From positions 58,644-122,643 of the forward strand of contig CAMTUF010000003.1 of assembly GCA_947084875.1 (NCBI GenBank): a stretch of DNA of 64,000 nucleotides, written 5' to 3'. The notes beneath the pieces were generated by a model that worked only from the letters and a program-made list of their open reading frames with translations, had not been told where the DNA came from and did not search any database. Within the stretch, counting starts at the first letter, position 1. Each line of letters starts with the position of its first letter. The DNA is from an uncultured bacterium (lineage in GTDB: Bacteria > Patescibacteriota > Saccharimonadia > Saccharimonadales > Saccharimonadaceae). Of the stretch, positions 1,224-32,596 are shown piece by piece. The translations under genes and the position numbers were made by a program.

Positions 1224-1316
1224 GATAATTACCCTCCTGTTGTTACTATACACTTGTTCAATTACGAGTTATAGTGCAAAACGACGCGGTATATTAGAAC
1301 GTTTACAGTAACCTAT

Positions 1317-2165
1317 CTACTGTTTATCTAGTAACTCTTGGGCACGCTGATACGAACGATTTGCCTGATCGTACTGGGTCTGAGTACCTTCGATAATAGC
1401 CTCGGGATATATGCCTAAACCACTCATTTTGTCTAACCTTGCTGCGAGGATCATACTTCTGTCGAACATAGCATTAGCATAGGCATTCAAAAATGCTTTT
1501 GATTCGTGACCATTAAGCGGGAGTCCTGGAACCTTCAAGAATGAAAATGAATGACTGATAATACCTCCCTGATCCGCAAGATGTTTCATAGCAGCGATAG
1601 CTTTTTCGAAATCTGCTAAGTCGAAATGTGTATCTTCAAATGGTCTATTAGCTTCTTTAATTACTTGCTCGGCAAAATATTTACCCGCAGCAATACTTGG
1701 TTTGGACGGCTTTTCCTTGAACGTAGCGATATGACGAGTCCTACCGCTTGGATAACGTGCAGTATAGTCAGCCACGACACCCTCTCCAGGAAGAACAGCT
1801 GCAATGTCGAGACCGCCATGAAGCGTCGTTTCACCGATTCGGCGAGCAACATCATAATAGTGTTGACGTACATCGTCTGGCGTATCTTTAAAACCTAGAG
1901 TATATTCCATGTCATCAACGTCAAGTTTGTCTAAAGGTGTTACGGTAAGTCGCTCATCGACGACTGCACTATCATCAAGTCGCATAAACGAAGGAATCCT
2001 TTTAGCGGCATCCAGGTACATCAAACCCAGTGGTTTATCCTGAAATGCGTCGGGTAGGCCGTCTTCGGCTAGACGCTGAAATGCGTCAACATAGGCTGTT
2101 CGAGATAAGTCGTTGAACTCGACAACCATTTCTCTATTCGTAGGAAATCCGTCTCGACGTGGCAT
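1317..2165 (-). CDS. hypothetical protein
   Basis: 282-aa ORF with native composition and an AAGGGGA SD upstream. No recognisable motifs. Confidence 0.55.
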   Translation of the reverse strand: MPRRDGFPTNREMVVEFNDLSRTAYVDAFQRLAEDGLPDAFQDKPLGLMYLDAAKRIPSFMRLDDSAVVDERLTVTPLDKLDVDDMEYTLGFKDTPDDVRQHYYDVARRIGETTLHGGLDIAAVLPGEGVVADYTARYPSGRTRHIATFKEKPSKPSIAAGKYFAEQVIKEANRPFEDTHFDLADFEKAIAAMKHLADQGGIISHSFSFLKVPGLPLNGHESKAFLNAYANAMFDRSMILAARLDKMSGLGIYPEAIIEGTQTQYDQANRSYQRAQELLDKQ

Positions 2166-2290
2166 GATTAAAGTCCCCTTTTAAAGAGGTTTTGAGCCAG
2201 CATATCTCTCATAGATATCATATGTATATATTAGCATATTTATGCTATAAAGTCAATTAATGGCGTGTGTTCGTAGTCGCATTATGAGAG

Positions 2291-2296
2291 TATAGT
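2291..2296 (+). promoter_or_regulatory. putative -10 box (TATAGT) 6 nt upstream of ATG 2303
   Basis: The hexamer lies 6 nt from the start codon and there is no separate SD. Part of the recurrent leaderless pattern. Confidence 0.4.
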
Positions 2297-2302
2297 AAAG
2301 GC

Positions 2303-2695
2303 ATGATTAACACAGCAATCCAAACATATAACTCTTCACAGGCCGATGATGATCGGAGTATATGCGATCGATTAGCGACAATCATTGATACTAGCCTGCC
2401 TGACGCCGAGAACAAAGTATGGCACGGTCACCCCGTGTGGTTTATCGACGGTAACCCGATTGTTGGATACGCTAAGTTGAAAAATAACGTCCAACTACTA
2501 TTTTGGAGTGGTCAGTCATTTGATGAACCAGGATTAAAACCAGAAGGTAGCTTTAAGTCCGCCGAGGCTCGCTATACCAACATAGATCAGATTAATGAAG
2601 CGGATTTACATCGATGGTTAGAAAAATCTATCGCTATTCAATGGGACTACAAAAACATCGTCAAACGTCGCGGTGCTCTTGAGCGATTGAAGTAA
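2303..2695 (+). CDS. DUF1801 / YdhG-like domain protein
   Basis: 130 aa. The pattern ...KVWHGHPVWFIDGNPIVGYAKLKNNVQLLFWSG... is typical of the YdhG/DUF1801 family. Confidence 0.5.
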   Translation: MINTAIQTYNSSQADDDRSICDRLATIIDTSLPDAENKVWHGHPVWFIDGNPIVGYAKLKNNVQLLFWSGQSFDEPGLKPEGSFKSAEARYTNIDQINEADLHRWLEKSIAIQWDYKNIVKRRGALERLK

Positions 2696-2899
2696 TCCTT
2701 CATTGACATTTCCTCAATAATGATGTTTAATTAACACTAGTCAAGTCGAGTTTTGCTCCTTGATGTTTTTTAATAGTTGGATGATTAGTTTTATGGCGTA
2801 AGCTCCCACAAGCACAAGGTGGTATGTGTTTATTGGAGTTTACGCAAATAATGGCATGACCTCCGCCCACCCCACCCGCAACGAAACGGAGAACGAGCT

Positions 2900-4159
2900 A
2901 TGTCTAGCACCACGTCCCCACCGCCCCCGTCGGAGTTCACCAATGCGGTGAACTACGCCAAGTCCTTCGATGACTACCCCGAGAAGGAGCCCGCAGCATG
3001 GGCGCTCGGCTACGTCACGGAGCAGGATGGCGTCCTCACCGACGTCTTCTTCCCGCCTCCCTACGGCAACGTCGGCACCAACTACGGCAGCTTCGCGCTG
3101 CTGTGGCAGACGTCGTACGTCAAGGGCGACACGCGGTACGTCGACCTCGACAAGCTCGAGAACGACATGCTGCCGAAGTTCGCCTGGACCAAGGAGGAGC
3201 CGTACAGCCAGGACGCGCACCTCAACGTCGCGGCCATGGAGTACGTGCTCGACGTGGTCAAGAACGCCAAGCTCGGCTACGGTCGTACGCTCACGCCCGT
3301 TCTGGTGTCGATCGACGACCTCATGTCGGCGCCGACGTTCGGCATGCTCGAGGCGCGCCTGCGTCTGACGCTCGTGTCGGGCGGTCACCTGACGCTGGAC
3401 AAGATCAACCTCAAGAAGATCTTCACCCAGCTCAAGCGCACCGCATGGACGAACCACGGAGTCTTCGACGGCTCCAAGTCCGCGCTCGCCGCGATCCGAC
3501 GGGCGATGCAGAGCGAGGGAAAGTCCCTCGTGATCGACGTGCTGGACAAGTTCCCGATGCTCGTCGACTACATCGACCTGGACGACTCGATCCGTGTGCT
3601 GGGTCGTGTGCGCCTGGGTGCCTACCTGGGCAACGGCACAACGGTGATGGCATCGGGCTTCGTCAACTTCGGTGCCTACGTCACGGGACCGAATATGATC
3701 GAGGGACGCGTGCCCATCGGCTCGACCATCGGCGCGTTCACCGATGTCGGCGGAGGTACTTCGATCATGGGGACGACAAGCGGCGGCAACCCCGTCGTCG
3801 TCAACATCGGCGCGTACTGCCTGCTGGAGGCGATGTCGGGCATCGGCTTCCCGATCGGTGATCGGGTCCGTGTCGAGGCTGGCTTCTACGCCAAGAGCAC
3901 GACGCCGCTTCGGGTCAACCTCTACGACACCGCGTGGGATGGCAACGCGCTCATCGAAGCGCTGCGTCTGGAGCACCCGCTCTACCCCGCGGGCGAAGGA
4001 CCCACGCCGTTCGATGGAACGCTTAAGACCAAGGCGATCACCTTCGCCGAGATCAACGACGCCATCCTGCGACGCGACGCCGACACCGGGCAGCCCTTCG
4101 TCGTCCCGCGCGGCGACAGCACCTGGGGTGAGCTCGACATGGTCCTGCACACCGCCTGA
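2900..4159 (+). CDS. DapD-like hexapeptide-repeat acyltransferase (actinobacterial tetrahydrodipicolinate N-succinyltransferase type), extended 419-aa form
   Basis: Aligns by eye with M. tuberculosis DapD across WTNHG, (V/L)DKFP.(L/M)VDY, RVRLGA.L..GTTVM..GFVN, M(I/V)EGR, DVGGG.SIMGT.SGG and the LbH repeats. Codons end strongly in G/C. GGAG SD 8 nt upstream. Confidence 0.75.
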   Translation: MSSTTSPPPPSEFTNAVNYAKSFDDYPEKEPAAWALGYVTEQDGVLTDVFFPPPYGNVGTNYGSFALLWQTSYVKGDTRYVDLDKLENDMLPKFAWTKEEPYSQDAHLNVAAMEYVLDVVKNAKLGYGRTLTPVLVSIDDLMSAPTFGMLEARLRLTLVSGGHLTLDKINLKKIFTQLKRTAWTNHGVFDGSKSALAAIRRAMQSEGKSLVIDVLDKFPMLVDYIDLDDSIRVLGRVRLGAYLGNGTTVMASGFVNFGAYVTGPNMIEGRVPIGSTIGAFTDVGGGTSIMGTTSGGNPVVVNIGAYCLLEAMSGIGFPIGDRVRVEAGFYAKSTTPLRVNLYDTAWDGNALIEALRLEHPLYPAGEGPTPFDGTLKTKAITFAEINDAILRRDADTGQPFVVPRGDSTWGELDMVLHTA

Positions 4160-4163
4160 TCAT

Positions 4164-4238
4164 CCAGCTCCACGAAGGTTCGCCTCGCCTGCTTCACTGC
4201 AGGGCGCGCCACAAGCGCGTGCGACCCTTCGTGGCTGG
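4164..4238 (+). terminator. GC-rich interrupted stem-loop just after the island-1 stop codon (U-tract-less terminator candidate)
   Basis: CCAGC/GCTGG, CACGAAGG/CCTTCGTG and TCGC/GCGA pair (17 bp in total) around a 37-nt GC-rich loop. No T-run follows. Confidence 0.4.
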
Positions 4239-4314
4239 ACCACGTTATATAGTTTTCTATATGCCGTGATCTAGCTACTCTTACAGGCTTACCACTCGTA
4301 TATATTCTTTGAAT

Positions 4315-4887
4315 TTATAACGTAGAAACGTATTCATTACCTGTAATATAGAACCGCCACGGCATGTTCTTAGCACGACTAATACCTATTCGTTTGGTTT
4401 GGGTAATACGACTTTTGTTAATAGGTTTCTGAATAATTAACTTCAACGGTGACGCGCGCAAATCATGGCCATTCAATTGTTTATCAATGGCAAGCGCCTG
4501 ACATAATTTTGCAGGTCCATTTGTAAGCTCCACACCTCCACGACGACGCCGATTGAGCATATACTCTAGGCCGTCTAATGGTTCGACTGCGCGAATAAGA
4601 ACGGCTGAGCCAATTCCTTCGACGTCCGTCACCACGTTGCAACAATAATGCATCCCATAGGTAAAGTAGACATACAGGTGCCCTGCATCGCCAAACATGA
4701 TATCTGTACGAGGAGTTTGACCTTTATAACTATGGCTCGCCGCATCGGTCTGATCGTAAGCTTCTGTTTCAACAATCTTCACTCTTAGAATTGTGCCATC
4801 AACTTCACGTTCTAATATGCAACCCAGTAACAATGGCGCCACAATGGAGGCGGGTTTACGCAGAAAAGTGGTCAATGAGGTATTCAT
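4315..4887 (-). CDS. mpg: DNA-3-methyladenine glycosylase (AAG/MPG family)
   Basis: 190 aa with ...IVETEAY...D.ASHSY.G.T.R...MFG..GH.YVYF.YGMH.C.NVV... typical of the MPG family. Confidence 0.85.
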   Translation of the reverse strand: MNTSLTTFLRKPASIVAPLLLGCILEREVDGTILRVKIVETEAYDQTDAASHSYKGQTPRTDIMFGDAGHLYVYFTYGMHYCCNVVTDVEGIGSAVLIRAVEPLDGLEYMLNRRRRGGVELTNGPAKLCQALAIDKQLNGHDLRASPLKLIIQKPINKSRITQTKRIGISRAKNMPWRFYITGNEYVSTL

Positions 4888-17196: not shown

Positions 17197-19068
17197 CTAT
17201 TGTCCTGGAATCTTAAATTGACCAGGGTCGTTTGTTGCTGGCGGAGGTGATGCCAAGATATCACCTAGACGTTCAGGTGCAGCAGCTGGTTGAGGCAAGG
17301 AATCAAGCGCATATGGCGAAGCAGCGGGCGTTGGGAGGGCCCCAAAATCTGGCAGCGGTGGTGGTGGCGGCAAAGTAATGCCAGGTGCTGGCGAGAACGC
17401 ACCAGGAGTGGCAGGTACGCCACCATACGCTGCGTTCACAGCCGCAAGCGCGTCGTCTCGTGACGCTTCATCACGACTCTTTTCAAGTGCAGGCGCAGGA
17501 ACGGCAAGTGTATCTACAGGGCTAGGCGCAGTGAGAGGACTCGTGCTAGGGAGCGTCGGTGCAGGTGGTGGCGTCGCAAAGATATCAACACCTCCCGCGT
17601 CGGCTGAATCGGTTACAGGCAAACCGAACGATGGAGAGGCACCACCGAGATATGAGTGTTTGCTTACCTCTTCTGATGGTGCTGGTACGAGTGGATCAGG
17701 TGTTGGTGTCAGAGGACTGAGTGGACTTGTCATACTTGAGTCAGGAAGAGTTGGCGCAGGTGGCATCACAGGGCTTGGCTGAATCAATGGACTGCTAAGA
17801 GGCTGAAGAGAGTCAGTCGTTGGCATAAGTGGCGTAATAGTCGGAGGAGCTGGTGGTGGTGCCAGAGGAGTTGTCATTTCAGGTAATGGTGGAGGTGTTG
17901 CAGGCACGATCGGCTCGACAACAAGTGGCGCCGTAGGAGCTGGAATAGGAGGCGCAGTTGGAACGCCACCGAGTAATGGCTGAACTGTCGGTGTGGCTGG
18001 AGCTTCTGCTGGAGCATCTGGATCCAGTGCGTAGGCATCCGCTATCTTACCGATAACAGGTGGTGCCGTGACTGGAGGAGTATCGATTGTGGCAGGTGGT
18101 GCAATAACAGGTTCAACGACGGGCGCTACGACTACTGGAGCAGCCGTTGGTGCTGGAGTTGGTGGCGCCACGACAGCAGGTGCTACCTCCTCATGAGTAA
18201 TAGCCATCCCCTCTTTGGTTGGGACGCTTGGAGGAACAATTCCCGACTCAACTAATGGTGTTGTGTACGCTGAATTGCTACCCGTCGGTGTCGCACCCGC
18301 ACCGATTTCGTGTGACTCTTGTAATTTAGCCGCAATAAGTTGTTGGTCGGCACCAGCTGCCATTAATTGTGCAGCCATCGTCATTACTTTCGACGAAGTT
18401 TTCGTATTACTAAAACGATCAGTTTCAGCCACGATACCAGTCAGCAGCGCCGTGGCGACTTGCTGATCGATGAGCGGTGTATCGGTTTGCAGTGATTCTG
18501 TTAAACCAACAACCATCTCACTCAAACTACTTGTTGTTGCGTCATGCCAATCAATACTACCAAGGCTGCTTGATGTCTCGCCCGTACTGATTGTGACTAC
18601 CGTCGCATCGTGCAAAATACTGCCATGAGCCTCAAGAGCAGCGTCCAAGTGTGTCTGGTTCTCAACTCCGAGTGCCAAGACTAACTCGACGTTGTAGTCA
18701 CCCTGACTAAACTCGAGATCTTCGTTACTGATTGTTGTGCGGTATGGGGTAATGAATATTTTAACTAAGTCACCTTCGACTTTGTAACGGAGGTGGTCGG
18801 CCTTTTCCTTATCAAGGGCGATAATGAAGTCACGAAGGCTATCGATTGATGCCTCAAAGGTTTTTTCTGGGTCAAGAAATGTTATTGCTGGTGGAGTTGC
18901 ACCACTAAAAATGGCAGTTGTGTGTTTGCCAAGTTTATTCAAGATAACCGTCAGTCCAATTGCAGCTGATAACGCATCAACAGAAGGGTCTTTACTGACG
19001 GTCACTAAAACATTAGTCGAGTTGGTAATTTTCTCAACTATCTGACTTTTCGTTTTAGCTTCGTTCAT
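17197..19068 (-). CDS. DHH/DHHA1-like (NrnA/CnpB-position) protein with degenerate catalytic motifs and a long proline-rich C-terminal region
   Basis: The N-terminal ~250 aa resemble the DHH-family fold, and the gene sits directly upstream of truB as nrnA does in many genomes. The DHH and DxD motifs are not identifiable by eye. The C-terminal ~370 aa are P/A/T-rich low complexity. Confidence 0.5.
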   Translation of the reverse strand: MNEAKTKSQIVEKITNSTNVLVTVSKDPSVDALSAAIGLTVILNKLGKHTTAIFSGATPPAITFLDPEKTFEASIDSLRDFIIALDKEKADHLRYKVEGDLVKIFITPYRTTISNEDLEFSQGDYNVELVLALGVENQTHLDAALEAHGSILHDATVVTISTGETSSSLGSIDWHDATTSSLSEMVVGLTESLQTDTPLIDQQVATALLTGIVAETDRFSNTKTSSKVMTMAAQLMAAGADQQLIAAKLQESHEIGAGATPTGSNSAYTTPLVESGIVPPSVPTKEGMAITHEEVAPAVVAPPTPAPTAAPVVVAPVVEPVIAPPATIDTPPVTAPPVIGKIADAYALDPDAPAEAPATPTVQPLLGGVPTAPPIPAPTAPLVVEPIVPATPPPLPEMTTPLAPPPAPPTITPLMPTTDSLQPLSSPLIQPSPVMPPAPTLPDSSMTSPLSPLTPTPDPLVPAPSEEVSKHSYLGGASPSFGLPVTDSADAGGVDIFATPPPAPTLPSTSPLTAPSPVDTLAVPAPALEKSRDEASRDDALAAVNAAYGGVPATPGAFSPAPGITLPPPPPLPDFGALPTPAASPYALDSLPQPAAAPERLGDILASPPPATNDPGQFKIPGQ

Positions 19069-32057: not shown

Positions 32058-32069
32058 GAGGAGAAAGAT
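32058..32069. repeat. left arm of the perfect 12-bp inverted repeat GAGGAGAAAGAT
   Basis: The exact reverse complement lies at 32585-32596. Together they coincide with the composition boundaries of island 2. Confidence 0.7.
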
Positions 32070-32077
32070 CCCCGCGG

Positions 32078-32109
32078 GGACGGCGCGGTACATGCATACC
32101 ACGCCGTCC
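32078..32109 (-). terminator. GC-rich terminator hairpin downstream of the island-2 ORF
   Basis: Minus strand GGACGGCGTGGT-atgcatgt-ACCGCGCCGTCC (12 bp, one G-U pair), followed by a pyrimidine/U-rich stretch. Confidence 0.55.
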
Positions 32110-32116
32110 ACCACGA

Positions 32117-32584
32117 CTACGCCGACAAGGTGTAGACCTCGTAGACGGTCTTGCCGGGTCGAACAGACTTGTGCACGATGCCCCGAAGGACAAATGCATC
32201 AAGCAAGACGTCTGCGCGTTCCAGGCCGAATCGTTCGTTGAGAACGAGAGCGCGGTTGTCGTTGATGACAACCGACAGGAACGGGCCTGCCTGCCTGATC
32301 GTCGACAGCATCGTCTCCTGGTCGTCCGACAGGGGCACACGAATCGTGTGCTTCCAGTTCTTGTCGTCCTCTGGTGCAGCACTGGTATTCGTAAGACGCC
32401 TGAACGGCGACATGTACTTCGCACCAGGGATGGCCCTGACGATGCGCTTCAGCTGAGTCGCGCTCGGGGCTCCCACTTCTGACACCAGTTCAGGCCAGGT
32501 CGAGAACTCATACGACTGACCACAGCACAGCAGCTGCAGACGGTCGCGAAGTTCTTCGACACTGGGCATATCGATTACGGGCAT
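32117..32584 (-). CDS. orphan high-GC hypothetical protein (155 aa; C-terminal winged-helix-like segment)
   Basis: ORF with a GAGGAGAAAG SD 3 nt before its ATG and GC-rich codons. The overlapping antisense ORFs are high-GC artefacts. No family recognised. The tail ...LLDAFVLRGIVHKSVRPGKTVYEVYTL looks wHTH-like. Confidence 0.6.
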   Translation of the reverse strand: MPVIDMPSVEELRDRLQLLCCGQSYEFSTWPELVSEVGAPSATQLKRIVRAIPGAKYMSPFRRLTNTSAAPEDDKNWKHTIRVPLSDDQETMLSTIRQAGPFLSVVINDNRALVLNERFGLERADVLLDAFVLRGIVHKSVRPGKTVYEVYTLSA

Positions 32585-32596
32585 ATCTTTCTCCTC
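32585..32596. repeat. right arm of the 12-bp inverted repeat (ATCTTTCTCCTC), also the SD of the island-2 ORF
   Basis: Exact reverse complement of 32058-32069. Confidence 0.7.

Follow-up and report, generated by a model that had tools for sequence, protein, structure and literature searches.

A GC-rich single-gene island in a Candidatus Saccharibacteria genome is one of several DapD-like modules with a structured leader and complementary 5′ and 3′ boxes

Islands acquired by classical horizontal transfer are set apart by a sharp discontinuity in GC content and codon usage, and the genes they carry are missing from the closest relatives of the recipient. Here, both features were found for an island at ~2850-4245 of a 64-kb stretch of environmental Candidatus Saccharibacteria DNA (referred to as the window, whose numbering is used for all coordinates). 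Saccharibacteria are epibionts of Actinobacteria, and the single convincing gene within the island encodes a homolog of the succinyltransferase DapD. Unlike a classical transfer island, this one is limited to a single gene, has neither mobility genes nor a donor that could be found, shares its compositional anomaly with anciently diverged copies and lies in a regulatory frame that is lineage-specific. The encoded protein has the fold and the key substrate residues of the three-domain DapDs PA3666 (3R5A-D), Rv1201c (3FSX/3FSY) and that of C. glutamicum (5E3P-R), from which it differs by ~100 additional amino acids, by profile scores of only 183 bits against cut-offs of 441 and 518, by substitutions near the active site and by the lack of diaminopimelate (DAP) neighbors in the window.

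The untranslated parts of the module also have described counterparts. In the B. subtilis hbs mRNA, a 14-bp interaction that links the 5′ untranslated region (UTR) with the 3′ UTR modulates cleavage by RNase Y and access of RNase J1 (PMC5737220). An equally long duplex, 14 bp in the window, is predicted here to tie a structured 5′ UTR to the 3′ terminus of a monocistronic mRNA, and the window encodes both RNase J and PNPase; unlike in hbs, the 3′ partner extends over the stop codon and belongs at the same time to a terminal hairpin, the sequences are unrelated, and the interaction is supported by covariation. Intramolecular 5′-3′ pairing likewise occurs in S. aureus icaR, where the 3′-UTR motif UCCCCUG pairs with the Shine-Dalgarno (SD) region, blocks translation and makes an RNase III site (PMC3868564). 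The leader of the present module also has a C-rich, anti-SD-like CCUCC element; unlike in icaR, however, this element lies in the 5′ leader, and the 3′ box is complementary to a box ~110-130 nt upstream of the start codon rather than to the SD. The lysine riboswitch listed in Rfam is likewise a covarying structured leader upstream of a DAP-pathway-type gene. Its L-box has a five-helix architecture, whereas the leader described here comprises one long hairpin plus boxes, has no Rfam match and implies no ligand. With moderate confidence, we regard the island as a copy of a long-resident expression module that is patchily exchanged among Saccharibacteria and in which a high GC content persists.

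The island has a GC content of 64% against a background of 46%. When calculated in 200-nt windows, GC rises from 0.36-0.47 to 0.57-0.67 across ~2850-4245 and then drops back, and both transitions are complete within ~20 nt of raw sequence. An earlier note, prepared from the sequence alone, had described a sharply bounded ~1.4-kb high-GC island holding one gene with its own GGAG SD, G/C-ending codons and a stem-loop without a U-tract after the stop codon, a description that our analysis confirmed. The 419-amino-acid open reading frame (ORF) has GC contents of 0.605/0.443/0.886 at its three codon positions (GC1/2/3), whereas GC3 of the 58 other window ORFs of at least 100 amino acids has a median of 0.429 and a maximum of 0.723. 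The comparison of codon profiles that the note had proposed revealed a completely different usage from that of resident genes (AAG 100% vs. 37%; ATC 100% vs. 41%). TTA, TTG and CTA are absent, and the choice of AAG, ATC, CTC/CTG and GTC is actinobacteria-like. Eight islands of at least 0.13 GC above the median were detected in 1.32 Mb of Saccharibacteria DNA, none of the others reaching half the length of the one at 2850-4245.

At least 11 copies of this arrangement were found. In contigs of 42-50% GC that stem from independent samples, 11 divergent homologs (35-68% identity) each form a GC island of one gene. One of these, P0001 (66% identity, locus L001), is itself an island of 0.62 GC between flanks of 0.36-0.48 GC. 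Further copies are P0002 (L083), P0004 (L082), P0014 (L084, also L085), P0018 (L166), P0016 (L167), P0013 (L168), P0005 (L169) and P0007 (L171), together with metagenome locus L106, which was the one extra island recovered by a metagenome scan with the family alignment; all other hits of that scan were generic DapDs and were used as controls. In every copy examined, GC3 of the island is an outlier by +0.25 to +0.47 above the local median, and for comparison the total GC of 70 ordinary DapD control loci differs from that of their flanks by +0.032 ± 0.026. The genome carrying L084 is certainly a Saccharibacterium, with RpoC (87%), EF-G (84%) and S12 (98%) matching a Saccharimonadales metagenome-assembled genome (MAG) in the same gene order. 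A flanking protein of L106 is 80% identical to Saccharibacteria, and the MetK proteins of L083 (76%) and L167 (66%) are Saccharibacteria- or Patescibacteria-like. Two family members do not form islands, namely P0009 (L172) in a contig of 0.68 GC and P0003 (L170) in a contig of 0.54-0.57 GC.

The earlier note had attributed the island to a very recent acquisition from a high-GC, actinobacterial-like donor. Such a donor was sought among ~15 billion proteins in total, by a word-indexed search of 5.8 billion cluster representatives and an exhaustive phmmer search of 1.84 billion representatives. No donor-like protein was obtained: the word-indexed search returned P0001 at 66% and then nothing above 41% (BLAST), and phmmer added only two fragments (73% and 69%) before identities fell to 44% or less. 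The similarity searches and tree that the note had proposed for locating a donor clade yielded no non-island relative above 44% and a weakly resolved neighbor-joining (NJ) topology. An origin from phages or mobile elements was considered and found unsupported, with viral contigs providing one remote hit and no match to the leader.

The age of the copies was assessed by comparing identity at four-fold degenerate sites of conserved residues with codon-family-wise permutation means. Loci L166 and L168 are syntenic, and their DapD-like proteins, LigA and Ddl are 63.6%, 68.6% and 64.0% identical, respectively. Four-fold sites of the two neighbors are saturated (0.233 vs. 0.236 for LigA; 0.237 vs. 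0.247 for Ddl), and GC3 of the DapD-like gene is 0.65 in one genome (background 0.33) and 0.77 in the other (background 0.53), which places it 0.25-0.32 above background. Saturation was also reached for the pairs window/L083, window/L084 and L082/L169. As the copies are at or near saturation at synonymous sites and nevertheless all GC-rich, their divergence is old and they are probably not fresh imports. Furthermore, several copies, among them that of the window (GC3 0.89), exceed the sole verified high-GC homolog, L172 (0.77). The absence of a donor among ~15 billion proteins and the high GC of 11 long-diverged copies therefore do not support the reasoning that an unameliorated composition implies a very recent transfer, while an older origin in a high-GC, possibly actinobacterial, lineage is plausible.

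Homology between the copies reaches past the GC block into AT-rich DNA, and 10 of the 11 copies have an AT-rich, structured 5′ leader of ~160 nt. A sigma-70-type promoter is predicted at the start of the window leader (Table 1), and comparable hexamers, spaced by 17 nt, or extended -10 elements precede hairpin P1 in L083, L001, L167, L084, L171 and L166. A consensus promoter scanner, which demands A at the second position of the -10 element, reported no promoter at 2703-2731. P1 and its U-rich tail are present in all 11 leaders with predicted free energies of -7.5 to -14.6 kcal/mol, and its stem varies while complementarity is kept (e.g., CUGAG/CUCAG in L001 and UCGAG/CUCGA in L167); it may serve as a 5′ stabilizer or as an attenuator. 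The long hairpin P2 is supported by covariation: 92.9% of cells in the alignment are paired, compared with 70% in column shuffles (0 of 500 reached the observed value) and 32-47% with slid partners, and 15 of its 20 pairs show compensatory double changes. RNAalifold independently produced the same helix. Many of the pairs are G·U, which indicates that P2 probably forms in the sense-strand RNA.

A covariance model of the leader (R1) was used to scan 2.3 Mb, including ~1.3 Mb of other Saccharibacteria DNA and the 70 ordinary DapD loci, and matched only ten leaders and the duplicate L085, all upstream of DapD-like ORFs. Upstream of L106, L170 and L172 it found nothing, even with filters off; a P2-like hairpin that had been considered upstream of the high-GC homolog L172 was supported by neither the model nor folding. 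Searches against Rfam returned no family at the gathering threshold across the window or at E<=1 within 2600-4400, apart from tRNAs and one chance miRNA. Downstream of P2, predicted pairing of the CUCC element with the SD could sequester the latter, which is a weak inference from folding. Separately, the apical loop of P2 (AGGUGGUA, 2817-2824) is complementary to CCAC(C/U)C downstream of the hairpin (2866-2877) in the window, L082 and L167. In L167, the stretch is ATCCACT (7 bp). Such complementarity could form a pseudoknot, though it is absent from some members.

The second shared feature is the complementarity between a 5′ box, located between P1 and P2, and a 3′ box at the end of the ORF; like the leader, it is missing from L172, the one homolog in a truly high-GC contig. 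In the window, the boxes form a 14-bp duplex with 12 Watson-Crick and 2 G·U pairs and a predicted free energy of -21 kcal/mol, compared with -8.7 ± 2.3 kcal/mol for shuffles. Complementarity was observed in 10 of 10 leader-bearing copies, each time with different sequences, as illustrated by L082 (ACAGATGATTAGTT / AACTGATCATCTGT), L001 (TGTTGGACGATCA / TGATCGTCCGACA), L084 (TCGACTCAGCTG / CAGCTGAGTCGA) and L166 (TTGTTCTTT / AAAGAACAA); L106 has a weaker version. Duplex energies range from -13 to -24 kcal/mol in nine of ten copies when a narrow test window is used (shuffles, -6 to -13). Cognate boxes average -18.6 kcal/mol and non-cognate combinations -12.0 kcal/mol, with 1 of 20,000 permutations performing as well. 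Using one and the same measure, 43 ordinary DapD loci scored 14.2 ± 2.4 (maximum 21) and the modules 18-26.5. The positions are also constrained, as the 5′ box is always 106-131 nt before the start codon and the 3′ box is on or beside the stop codon in nine of ten copies. Ungapped box duplexes contain 116 Watson-Crick pairs, 7 G·U, 1 A·C and 1 other. This 7:1 excess of G·U over A·C is suggestive of RNA pairing on the sense strand but no proof, because some of the wobbles are inherited in common.

Because the 3′ box is also an arm of the terminal hairpin, the two pairings would compete. Every homolog has an equally strong 3′ hairpin of different sequence, within a frame of TGATCATCCA...GTTGGACCA in seven of them. 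The hairpin sequences proved too divergent for a joint alignment or consensus fold, and their structures are accordingly per-sequence folds.

Similarity patterns of leader and ORF disagree, which implies that the two parts have different histories. Between the -10 element and the end of P2 (2725-2849), the window is 93% identical to L083, whereas the proteins share 42% identity; similarity to L083 is regained only over the final 67 nt of the ORF (74.6%) and within the 3′ hairpin. Conversely, L001 has the closest ORF (68% protein identity) but a leader of only ~53% identity. The breakpoint at 2849 coincides with the left GC edge (~2850-2852), and this edge thus appears to mark a recombination breakpoint between leader and ORF. 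The short GC-rich stretch that separates P2 from the start codon goes together with the ORF, as the window resembles L001 there. Judged from these alignments, the mosaic, the variable genomic locations and an empty site in a sister genome fit an exchange of module segments among Saccharibacteria by recombination.

Profile, structural and residue-level comparisons placed the encoded protein within the DapD family, as the earlier note had proposed. Scores were far below the equivalog cut-offs, with 183.5 bits for NCBIfam DapD_gpp (TIGR03536; cut-off 518.45) and 182.5 bits for DapD_actino (TIGR03535; cut-off 441.5), and just below threshold for Pfam THDPS_M (22.8; <25) and Hexapep_2 (20.7; <27). 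DapDs in the PDB matched with E values of 1e-38 to 1e-44, and identity to known DapDs is ~40% in the middle domain and the left-handed beta-helix (LbH) core. An AlphaFold 2 model generated from an alignment of 73 sequences had a mean pLDDT of 92.8 and a pTM of 0.91, and Foldseek aligned all three of its domains to the DapDs of P. aeruginosa, M. tuberculosis and C. glutamicum with target-normalized TM scores of 0.85-0.89. The additional ~100 amino acids, including the C-terminal insertion, are real but typical of a ~400-amino-acid subfamily to which the protein aligns over its full length; the insertion is missing in sequences from Acidimicrobiales, Euzebya and another Actinomycetota MAG. In the P. 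aeruginosa enzyme (PaDapD), Glu221 is in contact with the amino group of the substrate, the succinyl carboxylate is bound by Arg223 and Ser241 and the alpha-carboxylate by Asn209, and Asp168 positions the arginines (PMC3281039). These residues correspond to E268, R270, S288, N256 and D216, which are invariant in the 73 family members; R232, G269 and D282 are also family-invariant and kept. R232, R236 and R238 are conserved, although the PaDapD arginines that bind the distal carboxylate were not mapped onto them by number. In its modeled fold and residues, the protein thus appears to work like a DapD, albeit with scores outside the equivalog families.

The window and P0001 deviate together at four nearly invariant positions near the active site (N258G, G260Y, S272P and L293T), and the substrate of this clade may differ from that of DapD. 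Neighboring genes in relatives fit a role in DAP or cell-wall metabolism. At L082 (2073-4493), two genes of native GC come after the DapD-like island gene, one for a class I/II aminotransferase (DapC-like) and one for an M20 peptidase (DapE-like), and the three together look like a complete DapD-DapC-DapE succinylase branch in a low-GC, reduced-looking genome. At L166 (9413-16586) and L168 (7963-13741), a conserved cluster downstream of the module comprises two genes of the Mur-ligase family and one each for an alpha/beta hydrolase, a class IV aminotransferase and Ddl (D-Ala-D-Ala ligase), which suggests a link with an unusual peptidoglycan stem peptide. In the literature collection searched, no paper linking Saccharibacteria with DapD was found.

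In the interpretation we favor, the island is one copy of a self-contained module that comprises, in this order, its own predicted promoter, an AT-rich leader (P1, 5′ box, P2, CUCC and SD), a GC-rich ORF for a putative three-domain DapD-type N-acyltransferase dependent on succinyl-CoA, the 3′ box and a very stable GC-rich hairpin. The enzyme would succinylate tetrahydrodipicolinate or a close 2-amino-dicarboxylate, to be used for diaminopimelate or the peptidoglycan stem peptide. By analogy with B. subtilis hbs, the 5′ and 3′ boxes could pair in the mRNA, and the paired ends together with P1 and the 3′ hairpin might shield the transcript from RNase J/PNPase and/or link termination with initiation; the window has genes for RNase J, PNPase and RpoD. 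The module would move patchily among Saccharibacteria by recombination, with its high GC either selected or very slowly decaying, and any high-GC origin would be old. The 5′ hairpin, end pairing, stable 3′ hairpin and GC-rich body all agree in this respect, so that selection perhaps acts on mRNA stability.

Composition by itself would also accommodate a recent host-to-symbiont transfer, by which 2850-4245 arrived from an unsampled high-GC donor to replace or fill a slot after the resident leader. This would explain a GC3 of 0.886 and fully actinobacteria-like codons next to resident usage, the sharp edges, of which the left one lies at a recombination breakpoint, and the absence of the gene from the closest sister genome; Saccharibacteria live on Actinobacteria, and one clade member is in a 0.68-GC contig. 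We consider it unlikely, as nothing above 44% identity was found outside island-type copies, and the nearest relatives (P0001 at 66% and the antisense-called P0286, see below) are in low-GC contexts. Moreover, the 3′ box on the GC side covaries with the 5′ box on the AT side, which means that the two sides co-evolved; other Saccharibacteria copies share the CUCC/SD segment and the frame of the 3′ hairpin, both of which are absent from L172; and GC3 of the window copy is above the 0.77 of L172. If the transfer from a high-GC lineage had instead been ancient, purely neutral and slow amelioration could have followed, with RNA elements that are ordinary regulatory features unrelated to composition. 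The GC3 range of 0.65-0.89 does resemble a decay series, the synonymous signal left in two ortholog pairs hints at slow synonymous change, and deeper relatives include Actinomycetota (Acidimicrobiales, Euzebya). However, neighboring genes are fully saturated, yet the offset is still +0.25 to +0.47; the copies of the window (0.89) and L001 (0.80), although near saturation, are in genomes with GC3 of ~0.43-0.46, where a rough estimate for neutral decay expects ~0.6; and GC3 of several copies lies above that of the sole verified high-GC homolog, all of which makes neutral decay quite unlikely. A role of the boxes in DNA rather than RNA appears improbable. They would then be recombination sites or terminal inverted repeats of a cassette that moves or inverts, similar to an integron, MITE or inverton, and this would account for the patchy distribution and the mosaic. 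Inverted repeats of 9-16 bp do flank P2 and the ORF in all copies, genomic location varies, leader and ORF histories differ, and the outer stem ATCCAAC/GTTGGAC of L083 and L169 resembles the attC core consensus RYYYAAC/GTTRRRY; the window itself has ATCCAGC/GCTGGAC at this site (4163-4169 / 4233-4239). Against this, no integrase, transposase or invertase is in the window or adjoins any copy, all 11 copies have the same orientation to the promoter with the 3′ box locked to the stop codon, the G·U bias of the mismatches is that expected for sense-strand RNA, the mosaic breakpoints (2849 and ~4100) are away from the boxes, and the antisense frame is unconserved. An integron-like cassette in particular was given low weight, as both integrase and cassette array are absent in the window and beside every copy.

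It is highly improbable, but would be of consequence, that the host-like codons are functional, i.e., that the module is read in, or in step with, a high-GC actinobacterial host, for example by delivery of the unusually protected, end-paired mRNA or of the DNA to the host and translation there. If true, host-codon selection would explain GC3 values of 0.65-0.89 beyond saturation in genomes with GC3 of 0.33-0.53, and the symbiont would manipulate diaminopimelate or cell-wall metabolism of its host. An assembly chimera between a Saccharibacteria contig and a high-GC fragment, which the earlier note had kept as its alternative, has practically no probability. Apart from the abrupt change in composition and the general proneness of MAGs to chimeras, nothing speaks for it: the junctions of leader, GC-rich ORF and hairpin recur in more than ten independent assemblies, the island is internal with native genes on both sides, the publicly annotated antisense protein P0284 and the DUF1801 neighbor are on one 135,856-bp contig in NCBI and Logan, and the AT-side 5′ box and GC-side 3′ box covary.

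Several observations weigh against a long-resident module with persistent GC. Flanking sequence gave no taxonomic assignment for L001, L082, L166, L168, L169 and L171. Residual identity at four-fold sites was detected for the DapD-like genes of L166/L168 (0.418 vs. 0.343; 28/2000 permutations, p ~0.014) and for window/L001, which is near saturation (0.443 vs. 0.352; p ~0.004), and the GC persistence could be due in part to slow change at synonymous sites or to exchange at a later time. GC3 of the copies spans 0.65-0.89 with no constant offset, and acquisitions of different age that are still ameliorating would look alike. In the NJ tree, islands interleave with P0009/P0012 (0.68-GC contig) and P0003/P0008 (0.55-GC), strict island monophyly received 0/100 bootstrap support, and the only solid group was window plus L001 (100/100); due to this interleaving, exchange with high-GC organisms in either direction is possible. 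GC3 spread, residual synonymous signal and tree topology together leave room for slow neutral decay or for occasional new high-GC input. With regard to the RNA elements, all R1 matches are training sequences, so that the scan demonstrates specificity and is no independent validation; the CUCC:SD helix is predicted in ~7 of 10 leaders, i.e., not uniformly, with an SD pairing probability of 0.87-1.0 in the window; and promoter, RNA pairing and stability role are predictions. Finally, as the clade of window and L001 is substituted beside the active site and has no DAP partner in the window, its substrate may not be that of DapD. On balance, we still favor, with the moderate confidence stated above, a resident and exchanged module.

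Table 1 Features of the DapD-like module and its surroundings in the 64-kb window
Feature	Position	Strand	Details
orf282	1317-2165	-	No Pfam match; native GC
DUF1801 protein, upstream neighbor	2303-2695	+	Pfam PF08818, E 1.3e-10; GC3 0.42; native GC
Predicted sigma-70-type promoter	2703-2731	+	-35 TTGACA (2703-2708), 17-nt spacer, -10 TTTAAT (2726-2731)
P1 hairpin	2741-2771	+	UCAAG 2741-2745 / CUUGA 2759-2763, then U6 2766-2771
5′ box AGTTGGATGATTAG	2775-2788	+	Inverted repeat I16, complementary to 3′ box
P2 hairpin	2796-2845	+	Outer stem GCGUAAGCUCC / GGAGUUUACGC, apical loop AGGUGGUA
Antisense ORF, 436 amino acids, publicly annotated, no gene	2840-4150	-	Codon-aligned antisense frame
High-GC block (island)	2850-4245		3′ part of leader, ORF and 3′ hairpin
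CCUCC element and SD	2860-2864 and 2888-2891	+	Predicted mutual pairing
SD GGAG	2888-2891	+	Sequence
DapD-like ORF, 419 amino acids, three-domain left-handed beta-helix succinyltransferase homolog	2900-4159	+	Profiles, structure model
3′ box CTGATCATCCAGCT	4156-4169	+	Overlaps stop codon TGA (4157-4159); outer-stem 5′ arm of 3′ hairpin
GC-rich 3′ stem-loop without U-tract, ends GCUGGA(CCA)	4163-4239	+	Free energy -45.9 kcal/mol, z -5.66
mpg (methylpurine-DNA glycosylase), downstream neighbor	4315-4887	-	Pfam PF02245, E 8.5e-68; GC3 0.40; native GC
Second GC island	32058-32596	-	ORFan 32117-32584 (155 amino acids) and GC hairpin

The surroundings of the island are typical of the lineage. The mpg and FtsK products are 82% and 94% identical to those of the Saccharibacteria MAG RYN_406, in agreement with the epibiont lineage guessed in the earlier note, and the best 80 mpg loci are almost all labelled Candidatus Saccharibacteria/Saccharimonadales, the rest being Patescibacteria. 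A DapD-like gene was found in none of these 80 sister loci. An empty site, which the note had proposed to look for, was identified in the closest sister locus (L002), where FtsK and mpg are followed directly by orf78; given this order, the window has ~3 kb extra, consisting of orf282, the DUF1801 gene and the DapD-like gene. The extra segment corresponds to 1254-4314 between orf78 and mpg, versus 10564-10585 of L002, and is compositionally mixed, with only the DapD-like module being GC-rich while orf282 and DUF1801 have native GC. As the note had stated, scans of the 64-kb window detected no integrase, transposase or direct repeats bracketing the island, and genes for DapA/B/C/E/F and LysA were likewise absent; the closest tRNA genes lie at 44, 56 and 58 kb, with none within 39 kb of the island. 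Other genes of the window have housekeeping functions (FtsK, RNase J, UDG, GuaA, PNPase, TruB, PolA, RpoD, DnaG, ArgRS, CTP synthase, RNR and GroEL), and genes for two Mur ligases, a FemAB-family protein and an M15 peptidase are located at 49-57 kb.

The public record carries a different protein at this locus. On a 135,856-bp contig in NCBI and Logan, the DUF1801 neighbor is correctly called, but the island is annotated with the antisense product P0284; the exact sense DapD-like protein was not found on the public record. The 436-codon antisense frame contains 0 stop-generating sense codons where 2.6 are expected (P ~0.08) and is broken 1-9 times in every homolog, and it was rejected as a real gene; the frame is open by chance, as a by-product of the high GC3. 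When used as a query, the antisense product identified a further relative that was called on the antisense strand (P0286, 58%, on an 18-kb contig). Gene callers trained on a low-GC genome thus pick the antisense strand, and DapD-like genes are consequently missing from protein databases; GC-rich genes in low-GC genomes of the Candidate Phyla Radiation may be systematically mis-stranded and hidden in the same way. The public P0016 shows a different misannotation, with a start that lies inside the leader (L167, 5219-5302), such that its first 28 residues translate P2; its real start is the GTG at 5303 of L167.

A second island, which the earlier note had credited with the same properties, does exist and has a GC-rich hairpin (z -6.4), but it is weaker, with a GC content of ~0.58 (range 0.56-0.63) and a GC3 of 0.72. 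It sits between mscL and argS and contains an ORFan, whose 155-amino-acid product had no Pfam match and retrieved only itself among 5.8 billion sequences. A DapD-type leader was not found there, and the motif upstream of the DapD-like gene recurs neither beside this island nor elsewhere in the window; the protein of the second island is unrelated to a GC-rich 158-amino-acid ORF of L082. Other rare single-gene GC islands in Saccharibacteria loci encode ThyX (GC3 0.80), a family-2 glycosyltransferase (GC3 0.83) and several small ORFans (GC3 0.74-0.90); these ThyX, glycosyltransferase and ORFan islands are at L023 18947-19708, L041 267-1931, L082 8170-8646, L055 6353-6778 and L059 1739-2260. Elsewhere in the window, a 623-amino-acid ORF (17197-19068, minus strand) without Pfam match has GC1, GC2 and GC3 of 0.63, 0.54 and 0.375, respectively, near a GC skew of up to +0.32 at 17.5-18 kb, and probably encodes a low-complexity or Gly/Ala/Pro-rich protein. 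At L170 (~560-800 and 2040-2180), a ~100-nt element (GGCCCGGCCTGGAG...TTATTGACCC...GGTTATGCTCG...CTATGTGGTATAACA.CCCTATTCCATCTCAC) is repeated upstream and downstream of the DapD-like gene of P0003, and resembles a terminator-promoter-leader unit that has been duplicated.

GC islands and pairing between UTRs are both features of a known kind, and the enzyme belongs to a known family, if as a divergent member. What appears to be new is an anomaly of composition that is long-lived, extends through a whole family and goes with a regulatory frame specific to the lineage, as well as the covarying, previously undescribed leader and a stop-codon-anchored 5′-3′ pairing with covariation. A sharp GC island need not mean recent import, as the anomaly observed here is shared by a family and outlasts synonymous saturation; protein-based surveys of gene transfer into Saccharibacteria will, in turn, miss mis-stranded GC-rich genes. 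The modules lend themselves naturally to tests of amelioration theory and of whether selection acts on synonymous sites or mRNA composition in reduced symbiont genomes. They also add a covarying leader and an end pairing that would span 1.4 kb to a very short list of such bacterial mRNAs, from an almost unstudied phylum. The modules further point to a DAP- or peptidoglycan-linked enzyme that many Saccharibacteria would keep despite lacking amino-acid biosynthesis, which bears on how these epibionts build their cell wall.

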